From contig JBHLLU010000014.1 in NCBI GenBank assembly GCA_048938895.1, positions 1-45,289 on the forward strand: a stretch of DNA of 45,289 bases. Reading direction: 5' to 3'. Position 1 is the stretch's first letter. Every line of letters begins with the position of its first letter. This DNA is from Promethearchaeota archaeon. Lineage in GTDB: Archaea; Asgardarchaeota; Lokiarchaeia; Sigyniarchaeales; SOKP01. A program made the position numbers and the translations under genes. The notes beneath the pieces are model-generated. The model worked only from the letters and a program-made list of their open reading frames with translations, ran no database searches and had not been told where the DNA came from. Positions 8,454 through 8,934 of this stretch are shown in pieces.

Positions 8454-8461
8454 TTTATAAT
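8454..8461 (+). promoter_or_regulatory. Putative TATA box for a leaderless transcript of the 8486 microprotein
   Basis: TTTATAAT ending ~25 nt upstream of ATG 8486; region is AT-rich so specificity is limited. Confidence 0.4.
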
Positions 8462-8485: not shown

Positions 8486-8653
8486 ATGATGGATTCAGAG
8501 ATAAAAGGACTTAGGAAAAGGAAAGTAAAAAAAATATTAATTTGGGTTGCTATAATAGCAGCAGCAGCAGCATTAGTGGCAACGTTAACCATTGTTAGTA
8601 TAGCGAGTGGTGACGGTGGTGGAACTTGAGGATGTTTAACTAACTTATTTTAA
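8486..8653 (+). CDS. Single-pass membrane microprotein, candidate selenoprotein (in-frame TGA at 8627-8629)
   Basis: Manual translation MMDSEIKGLRKRKVKKILIWVAIIAAAAALVATLTIVSIASGDGGGT-(TGA)-GCLTNLF-TAA: basic N-terminus, ~24-aa TM, Gly-rich tail; SECIS-like element downstream. If TGA is a stop the ORF is 8486-8629 (47 aa). Confidence 0.65.
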
Positions 8654-8659
8654 TATCTA

Positions 8660-8734
8660 AATAACCGATATAGATGATTCTTACAAAAAAATTATAGTTG
8701 TAAGCGGATTAACCTAGCAAAGGTTTCGGTTGTT
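8660..8734 (+). promoter_or_regulatory. Eukaryote-like SECIS-type RNA structure in the 3' UTR
   Basis: Outer helix AATAACCGA(8660-8668)/TCGGTTGTT(8726-8734); core ATGAT(8674-8678) with GGAT(8706-8709); helix CTTACAA(8680-8686)/TTGTAAG(8698-8704); AAAAA apical loop; extra hairpin AACCT/AGGTT(8711-8725). Confidence 0.6.
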
Positions 8735-8781
8735 ATTAAATAAAATTTATGCTCTAATTAAAAAAATTAAGGATTTGAATC

Positions 8782-8934
8782 ATGGTAAATGCAATTCTAA
8801 CTGTAAATGACAAGCAAGTCCCTTTAAAGGATTTTATGCAGGAAATGCTTGCAAACATAATTCTAGGATATTTAGAATCCACAAAAGCAGTTCCTAAACC
8901 CATAGAGACAATAAATATTGATATTAAATTATAA
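8782..8934 (+). CDS. 50-aa protein resembling the C-terminal domain of archaeal MobB-type proteins
   Basis: Manual translation MVNAILTVNDKQVPLKDFMQEMLANIILGYLESTKAVPKPIETINIDIKL; L.VN.K.VPL..F....L..II.G.L pattern; AAGGA SD-like upstream, T-run downstream. Below the track's size cut-off. Confidence 0.7.
   Translation: MVNAILTVNDKQVPLKDFMQEMLANIILGYLESTKAVPKPIETINIDIKL

Follow-up and report, generated by a model that had tools for sequence, protein, structure and literature searches.

The locus and its reading frame

We analysed a stretch of 45,289 nucleotides (the window), which is part of contig C102 in a 4.65-Mb assembly (31% G+C) of a Promethearchaeota archaeon of the class Lokiarchaeia, and focused on a short gene at positions 8486-8653 that probably encodes a small membrane selenoprotein. 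An ATG at 8486 opens a plus-strand frame of 47 codons, which is followed by a TGA (8627-8629), seven further codons reading G C L T N L F and a TAA (8651-8653). The automatic listing of open reading frames (ORFs) accordingly gives a 47-aa ORF; with the TGA read as selenocysteine (Sec, U) the frame comprises 55 codons. Downstream lies a putative Sec insertion sequence (SECIS) of the type described in Lokiarchaeota (lokiSECIS), 9 nt separating the TAA from its helix I and 44 nt the TGA from its AUGA core. An earlier note, made from the letters of the window, had described the same ORF with a basic N-terminus, a hydrophobic helix, a Gly-rich part, the TGA, GCLTNLF and the TAA; this reading is correct, and the two SECIS distances given there are right within a few bases. 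The features of the gene and of the RNA element are as follows:

8486-8653, plus strand: predicted selenoprotein gene of 55 codons, Sec as codon 48, stop codon TAA at 8651-8653 (from the ORF, the TGA of orthologues and coding-type substitutions)
8486-8533, plus strand: basic N-terminal segment, residues 1-16, predicted to be cytoplasmic by the positive-inside rule
8534-8602, plus strand: hydrophobic helix of transmembrane type, residues ~17-39 (Kyte-Doolittle), present in every aligned orthologue
8603-8626, plus strand: Gly-rich, probably flexible linker ASGDGGGT; most orthologues are likewise Gly-rich ahead of the Sec codon
8627-8629, plus strand: in-frame TGA read as Sec, residue 48, conserved in orthologues
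8630-8650, plus strand: tail GCLTNLF past the Sec, including the Cys of the U-G-C motif; GCLINML in the closest relative (G064)
8660-8740, plus strand: putative lokiSECIS (type I) within a three-way junction (from covariance models, covariation and geometry)
8663-8668 with 8726-8731, plus strand: SECIS helix I
8674-8677, plus strand: SECIS AUGA core
8678-8686 with 8698-8706, plus strand: SECIS helix II, a stem of nine positions, eight of them paired
8687-8697, plus strand: SECIS apical loop of 11 nt, starting with AAAAA and ending with AG
8707-8708, plus strand: SECIS GA
8711-8715 with 8721-8725, plus strand: SECIS helix III, a hairpin

On the Kyte-Doolittle scale the predicted peptide is hydrophobic in one segment, around residues 17-39, where the means of 19-residue windows reach 2.56. 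Seven Lys or Arg residues are found among the first 16 residues and none after the helix. The same asymmetry was seen in all 30 orthologues from the same genus, which carry 3-7 Lys or Arg ahead of the most hydrophobic 19-residue window; in the 15 residues past this window 25 of the 30 have none and five have one.

RNA structure in the 3’ region

The minimum free energy fold of 8654-8745 is a three-way junction. According to Mariotti et al. (2016, PMC4989117) a lokiSECIS consists of an AUGA, a 9-bp stem, an 11-nt apical loop and then a GA, and the first five bases of the loop are mostly A, while the loop ends in an ultraconserved G that as a rule follows an A. The segment 8674-8708 shows all of these published features with 8 of 9 stem positions paired. 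A strict pattern of this geometry matched 12 sites on both strands of the 4.65-Mb genome, as compared to 3 in a reversed-sequence control, and four of the 12 lie 3’ of known selenoprotein genes, namely three HdrA-VhuD pairs and one Prx-like gene.

Two covariance models were used. The first (R2) was built from the SECIS elements of these four known genes, with the 9-bp stem as sole structure, and found one site in the 45-kb window, at 8660-8737 (45.4 bits, E 1.2e-6), the next match scoring 15.6 bits. The second (R1) was built solely from 18 orthologues of the window gene and gave the window element 81.3 bits. Throughout the genome R1 yielded nine matches at E <= 1.2e-6 and otherwise nothing better than E 0.09; the nine comprise the window site, five type-I SECIS elements (HdrA-VhuD, HdrA and Prx-like) and three sites behind other TGA-containing ORFs. 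A lokiSECIS with the same 9/11/9 geometry was present in 18 of 18 orthologues, 47-119 nt past the TGA. In the alignment of these 18 sequences 90.6% of the cells are paired, as opposed to 38-52% with slid partners, and compensatory (two-sided) changes occur in 16 of the 20 SECIS base pairs; none of 500 shuffles reached the observed values.

The known type-I elements of the source genome share the outer helix and the side hairpin with the window SECIS, and the proper comparison is with the HdrA-VhuD and Prx-like elements. The 3’ regions of SelD were rejected as a model, since SelD bears a longer, type-II-like form. The source genome contains two tandem SelD genes (C140:31987-34470, loci L005 and L006), each with an in-frame TGA and its own longer type-II-like SECIS, in which the AUGA...GA core sits within a closing helix and a side hairpin is added; that SelD uses a different SECIS form has been published.

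Distribution in Asgard relatives

We searched the read-through peptide in six frames against 41 genomes, i.e. the source genome (G000) and 40 relatives (G numbers denote genomes; genera and families follow GTDB), and obtained matches in 17 of the 24 other genomes of the same genus. Two loci located inside stop-free frames of 600 and 300 aa (L030 and L032, E 0.16 and 0.26) were left out, as were rows without loci. In each of the 18 loci extracted first, a single in-frame TGA follows the hydrophobic helix and the Gly-rich stretch, and the TGA is kept in 30 of 30 loci of the genus, the final stops of which are TAA in 27 cases and TAG in 3. A profile of the 18 proteins gave 45 rows at E <= 5.5e-10 in 44 of 54 genomes of the genus, each of the 45 carrying the TGA.

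An order-wide search with this profile matched 81 of 134 other genomes of family f1, with a TGA in 80 of 91 rows, and none of 19 genomes from three other families. Of the 11 rows without TGA, six match just the helix, within long unrelated frames, one is a member of a paralogous family with an acidic run, one (G096) has its TGA beyond the aligned part, two are paralogue-like genes lacking both Sec and Cys (G112 and G114), and the remaining one is G060:C154. The Gly-rich-U motif is present in 18 of 20 loci taken from five further genera. With a broader profile and 400 genomes of the phylum, matches were found in 91 of 134 genomes of f1 and in all three genomes of a second family, f5, whose members end in GGGG-U-[G/V]-C plus eight hydrophobic residues and have a variant AUGA...GA hairpin. 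Matches outside the class were few and lie in long frames without TGA.

The consensus around the Sec codon is GGGG-U-x-C. In an alignment of 26 sequences from six genera the basic N-terminus and the transmembrane architecture are kept throughout, and Sec is the sole column reported as invariant (the G018 row is misplaced and has a downstream Cys there). The residues past the Sec vary: among the first 18 orthologues seven continue with G-C, one each with A-C, V-C and L-C, and one each with T-S-C, P-S-A-C and P-S-T-C; four soon reach a stop codon (U-G-stop twice, U-P-G-stop and U-S-G-stop), and one (G019) reads U-P-G-A with no Cys past the Sec. Other genera add U-C-stop, U-G-stop and, in G084, C-T-U-G-stop, and the commonest forms are U-G-C and U-P-C. 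One orthologue (L047 in G046) contains a second TGA two codons on (U-P-C-U), which would either encode another Sec or end translation early.

Translation beyond the TGA

No stop codon interrupts the frame for 26-33 codons past the TGA in 12 of the first 18 orthologues, and the frame then closes just before SECIS helix I. In the other two frames this stretch contains about three stops on average, though in three cases one of these frames is open too. Long tails were found in 9 of 13 tail groups, which at a chance of 0.15 for 26 open codons, calculated from the stop-triplet frequency of the genome, corresponds to a binomial P of 2e-5. The ratio of nonsynonymous to synonymous differences (pN/pS, pairs pooled within tail groups) is 0.46 past the TGA and 0.51 ahead of it. 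Differences at codon positions 1, 2 and 3 amount to 120/88/165 past the TGA and 211/135/256 ahead of it; with one pair per group the tails give 33/23/51 (chi-square P 0.0035). Pairs of unequal length, including all tail pairs of group A, were left out of these counts. The tails in genus g22 share a recognisable peptide pattern, and their stop codon lies 1-3 nt 5’ of the AUGA core or is the core’s own UGA. The source genome and its nearest relative G064 have a tail of seven residues, with the SECIS just 47 nt from the TGA.

Selenocysteine decoding in the source organism

The components for Sec synthesis and insertion were found in the assembly: a tRNA-Sec (61 bits; called by ARAGORN as SeC with anticodon tca), SepSecS adjoining it (499.7 bits), EFSec/SelB on the same contig (243.3 bits, with the cut-off at 242.25), a PSTK-like gene of full length (151 bits, below the curated cut-off of 290.5) and the two SelD genes with in-frame TGA. 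A whole-genome ARAGORN run revealed no tRNA with a UCA anticodon besides tRNA-Sec, a weak negative since only 18-24 tRNAs were detected in all; the program also made one spurious ‘Pyl’ call with a 1.8-kb intron. Among the stop codons TGA is the least frequent, ending 12% of the frames of >=300 codons, as compared to 72% for TAA, and a genome-wide reassignment of TGA was rejected on these grounds. About 7.5 kb past the end of the window, contig C102 also carries an HdrA gene with in-frame TGAs that ends at its own lokiSECIS (C102:52810-52891), with no VhuD between gene and element.

Public databases and literature

Neither the window protein nor the 18 members matched a Pfam or NCBIfam family, the latter library containing models of prokaryotic selenoprotein families; the searches returned just sub-threshold membrane-helix noise. 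A word-based protein search with the truncated 47-residue form gave no candidate, which is uninformative for a query so short and of such low complexity. A search of sequencing runs gave 13 entries, all of them metagenomic DNA contigs and none RNA. The profile matched 47 out of 1.84 billion representative proteins at E <= 1e-3, of which 46 were inspected (P0046, a 1038-aa protein, was left out). Of the 46 public entries, 40 do not extend past the TGA position, and six translate the TGA as W and continue. These six (P0001-P0004, P0038 and P0042) run on through the tail; some pipelines apparently used a code with TGA as Trp, and we regard the entries as gene-caller artefacts. Since the public calls either stop at the TGA or read it as W, the same ORF structure is present in independent assemblies.

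The accessible text of Huang et al. (2024, PMC11227280) describes an Asgard selenoproteome built by homology to known families alone, lists seven families (SelD, FrhA/VhuU, HdrA, FrhD/VhuD, Prx-like, AhpF-N-like and DsbA-like) and reports no eukaryote-specific selenoprotein family in Asgard archaea. The seven-family list is repeated in the accessible part of a 2026 review (PMC13188914), and in that of PMC9723677 just Hdr, Prx and Mvh are mentioned. Full-text searches of the literature on Asgard and archaeal selenoproteins, SECIS and lokiSECIS, supplementary tables aside, revealed no description of such a protein, and the family is absent from the consulted parts of PMC4989117, PMC11227280 and PMC13188914.

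Interpretation and alternative explanations

We consider it likely, and hold this with good confidence, that 8486-8653 is the gene of a 55-residue single-pass membrane selenoprotein whose UGA is decoded as Sec by means of the lokiSECIS. It very probably represents a genuine, previously undescribed selenoprotein family of Lokiarchaeia, in which a known decoding mechanism would operate in an unusual protein context. Comparative evidence from the genomes demonstrates the gene, its conserved UGA, the SECIS, the decoding machinery and translation past the UGA. Insertion into the membrane and an N-in/C-out topology are predicted from hydrophobicity and charge.

The earlier note had named as signs against a selenoprotein TAA or TAG in place of the TGA, a lack of conservation behind it and missing Sec machinery. 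Instead, read-through homologues exist with the TGA at the same place in 45 of 45 genus rows and 80 of 91 order-wide rows, the tails are coding-like by pN/pS, third-position bias and open frames, and tRNA-Sec, SepSecS, EFSec, a PSTK-like gene and Sec-containing SelD are all encoded in the genome. The absence of the family from published Asgard lists likewise agrees with the novelty proposed there. The U-x-C motif that the note derived from this one sequence turned out to be common among orthologues, but it is not universal, the Sec itself being the sole constant.

Several findings weigh against our conclusion. The main one concerns the Cys homologues for which the note had also proposed to look: neither the 46 inspected public matches nor the six-frame genome searches revealed a Cys at the Sec position. 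Nearly all selenoproteins have Cys homologues according to the accessible part of the 2026 review (PMC13188914), and such homologues usually validate new selenoproteins. The fold energy alone reaches a z-score of -2.0, and 6 of 200 shuffled sequences fold equally well. Rfam gave no match at gathering thresholds, the four chance-level matches near the site including no SECIS; this miss was to be expected and is uninformative, because standard SECIS models have been reported to fail on Lokiarchaeota elements (PMC4989117). With seven codons the tail in the source genome is too short for a separate coding test, which therefore rests on the relatives. At loci of genus g22 in G112 and G114 a similar protein with transmembrane helix and poly-Gly is encoded without Sec or Cys; each of these two genomes also holds a TGA-bearing copy elsewhere. 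A mechanism that strictly requires a U-x-C redox pair is weakened by the fact that 5 of the first 18 orthologues lack the partner Cys. Finally, the source genome is a metagenome-assembled genome with 7.5% estimated contamination; given the Sec-HdrA gene and its lokiSECIS on C102, the contig nevertheless belongs to a Sec-using organism.

It is also conceivable that Sec is inserted and that the hydrophobic part is a cleaved signal peptide, in which case a secreted or surface-released selenopeptide of about 15 residues would arise in the source organism. A bacterial ‘selenobacteriocin’ family with an SGUG motif, included in the accessible part of PMC13188914, offers a precedent for secreted selenopeptides. 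The succession of a basic n-region, a hydrophobic region, the small residues A-S-G and a Gly-rich part would fit such a peptide as well. We regard this explanation as unlikely, as the hydrophobic stretch comprises about 23 residues in the source genome and is similar in the orthologues, and a stretch this long corresponds to a membrane span and exceeds the usual core of a signal peptide.

If, on the other hand, the UGA were an ordinary stop codon, the product would be a 47-residue membrane microprotein and the RNA a kink-turn or terminator-type element with another role, e.g. in mRNA stability or in the binding of L7Ae-type proteins. The missing Cys homologues and the modest z-score of the fold would be in line with this, as would the gene calls ending here in 40 of 46 public sequences and the tails of just 1-2 codons in 4 of the first 18 orthologues. 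An ordinary stop would be very improbable all the same: the RNA and the HdrA-VhuD and Prx-like SECIS elements of the source genome form a single class, the position is occupied by TGA in each of the 45 strong genus rows although TGA makes up 12% of stops, and the tails are open, with a pN/pS of 0.46 and a bias towards third-position changes.

For a membrane selenoprotein, which we prefer, the following mechanism can be proposed. A short mRNA would hold both the ORF and the SECIS, and EFSec with Sec-tRNA-Sec would decode the UGA at 8627-8629, Sec being supplied by the archaeal/eukaryote-type machinery of tRNA-Sec, PSTK, SepSecS, SelD and EFSec. Given the size of a ribosome footprint, the SECIS, whose foot is separated from the UGA by 33 nt, should stay outside the ribosome while this codon is in the A site. 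The basic N-terminus would stay in the cytoplasm, the helix would span the membrane, and the Gly tether would present the Sec at the outer face, where the mostly hydrophobic residues past the U-x-C may keep the motif at the surface of the membrane. On the cell surface, such a tethered selenol or selenenylsulfide (U-x-C) might exchange with thiols and disulfides or serve as a site for a soft metal; members without the Cys would have a lone selenol or form an intermolecular diselenide and would need a partner thiol or a second copy. By analogy with redox-active C-x-C motifs and the mobile tail of thioredoxin reductase, thiol/disulfide-type exchange is a possible function that we put forward tentatively, and metal binding appears somewhat less likely.

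Relation to described selenoproteins

The window gene would share its decoding system and RNA signal with the published lokiSECIS genes (HdrA-VhuD, VhuU and Prx-like; PMC4989117, PMC11227280). Whereas the published Asgard families are soluble redox enzymes, the product here would be a 55-residue membrane microprotein unrelated to all seven, with the Sec near the C-terminus and no Cys-form homologues found.

In overall architecture the family resembles eukaryotic SELENOK and SELENOS, which are small proteins with one N-terminal span, a Gly-rich segment and a near-terminal Sec in a cytosolic tail. The likeness extends to small size, the single span, a Gly-rich and probably disordered segment, a near-terminal Sec and a eukaryote-like SECIS, and in several orthologues (U-G-stop, U-P-G-stop, U-C-stop) the Sec is one to few residues from the C-terminus, as in SELENOK/SELENOS. 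There are also differences: by the positive-inside count the Sec is predicted to be outside in all 30 orthologues but is cytosolic in SELENOK/S, and, unlike SELENOK/S, many members extend past the Sec by as many as 33 residues. No match to the SelK/SelS Pfam families was obtained for the window protein (E <= 1) or for the 18 members (E <= 10, among 25 of 34 families displayed). The view of the earlier note that the likeness is architectural only, with opposite topology, agrees with this missing Pfam match and with the Lys/Arg count. Membership in SELENOK/S is thus not supported, and convergence is our default reading of the sequences. We give little credence to the idea that the family, together with a paralogue with an acidic linker described below, is the archaeal counterpart or ancestor of SELENOK/SELENOS-type membrane selenoproteins, a relationship that is hard to judge because the proteins are so short. 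If true, it would mean that membrane-tethered, Gly-rich microproteins with a C-terminal Sec predate eukaryogenesis, in the lineage that supplied eukaryote-like SECIS elements, and it would contradict the published lack of eukaryote-type selenoprotein families in Asgard archaea.

The C-terminal tail of animal thioredoxin reductase reads Gly-Cys-Sec-Gly, and redox-active C-x-C motifs such as CPC and CGC are known; common to these and the window family is a flexible, Gly-flanked pair of Sec or Cys residues at or near the C-terminus. Thioredoxin reductase has the order C-U on a flavoenzyme, whereas the window family mostly has U-x-C, lacks the Cys in some members and, in the Pfam and NCBIfam searches, showed no attached enzyme or folded domain. 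The motif of the source genome is T-U-G-C, and G084 alone, with C-T-U-G-stop, approaches the thioredoxin reductase tail. Single-span proteins with a Gly/Cys-rich tail also occur in PF12669 (FeoB-associated Cys-rich membrane protein), which was hit by 1 of the 18 members at the noise level of E 0.11; no NCBIfam selenoprotein model matched. The bacterial KCU-star and UXX-star families and the SO_0444 U-x-C metal transporter, tabled in the accessible part of PMC13188914, likewise have Sec or Cys near the C-terminus but use in-frame bacterial SECIS elements.

Flanking features and further candidates

Two further features of the window were noted next to the gene:

8454-8461, plus strand: TATA-like box TTTATAAT, about 29 nt 5’ of the ATG, from sequence reading
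8782-8934, plus strand: conserved neighbouring ORF of 50 aa, present in 27 of 30 genus loci and given as context, with no claim that it is part of the system

The TATA-like box may serve as promoter for an mRNA with a short leader or none. The region around it is very AT-rich; the upstream regions of the orthologues are AT-rich as well and not obviously alignable.

The 50-aa ORF lies directly downstream in the 27 genus loci with 62-96% identity and is far better conserved than the selenoprotein. It contains no Cys and no hydrophobic segment, belongs to no Pfam family and shows a weak, sub-threshold NCBIfam likeness to the C-terminus of a MobB/FeS fusion; an Atlas search gave ‘hypothetical protein’ clusters alone, with scores under 0.9. 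It was not found at 20 loci of other genera (flanks of ~350 nt), and a functional link beyond the genus was rejected, the pairing holding within the genus only. That the ORF at 8486 is merely a selenium-sensing regulatory leader, which tunes this same-strand gene via UGA decoding and yields a functionless peptide, is suggested by the 27 paired loci but hardly credible, as the selenoprotein gene and its SECIS persist at the 20 other-genus loci without the 50-aa ORF, the peptide ahead of the UGA is under purifying selection (pN/pS 0.51) and its basic-plus-transmembrane architecture is kept across six genera.

Three other TGA-containing ORFs of the source genome were noted. At C51:52051-52390 (L037, L101) a second single-span microprotein is encoded, with a basic N-terminus, an acidic run and a C-x(1-2)-U motif; a lokiSECIS lies about 112 nt past its TGA, and orthologues with TGA occur in 7 of 30 other genomes of the genus. 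Profiles of the main family match the N-terminal and helix part of proteins of this type (E 4.5e-7 in G062, E 3.5e-5 in the source genome), and it is probably a distant paralogue of the window family. A protein of about 162 residues at C99:40422-40978 (L039, L108) has two adjacent in-frame TGAs within an invariant ...VVHAD-U-U-AD... motif, and a lokiSECIS about 130 nt downstream; a SECIS was present in 6 of 6 loci examined. Both TGAs are found in 32 of 32 matches, from 29 of 31 genus genomes including the source genome, and there is no Pfam or NCBIfam match. It is apparently a further undescribed selenoprotein, one with two Sec in tandem. The third, at C144:55427-55708 on the minus strand (L038), is an ORF of 65 codons that encodes two hydrophobic segments, contains an in-frame TGA and stops 6 nt 5’ of a site that R1 scores strongly as a SECIS (63 bits); a search of 30 genus genomes revealed no orthologue.

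Implications

A search that starts from the SECIS finds selenoproteins beyond the Asgard lists built by homology, and the same scan gives at least two further candidate families, the paralogous C-x-x-U microprotein and the protein of about 160 residues with two adjacent Sec. Gene callers systematically truncate genes of the window family or mistranslate the Sec as Trp. On our reading archaea hold a Sec family without Cys homologues, and the gap of 44 nt seen here raises the question of how near a UGA may lie to a eukaryote-like SECIS. The family also opens the question of Sec use at the archaeal cell surface, and of whether the likeness to SELENOK/S reflects convergence or ancestry.

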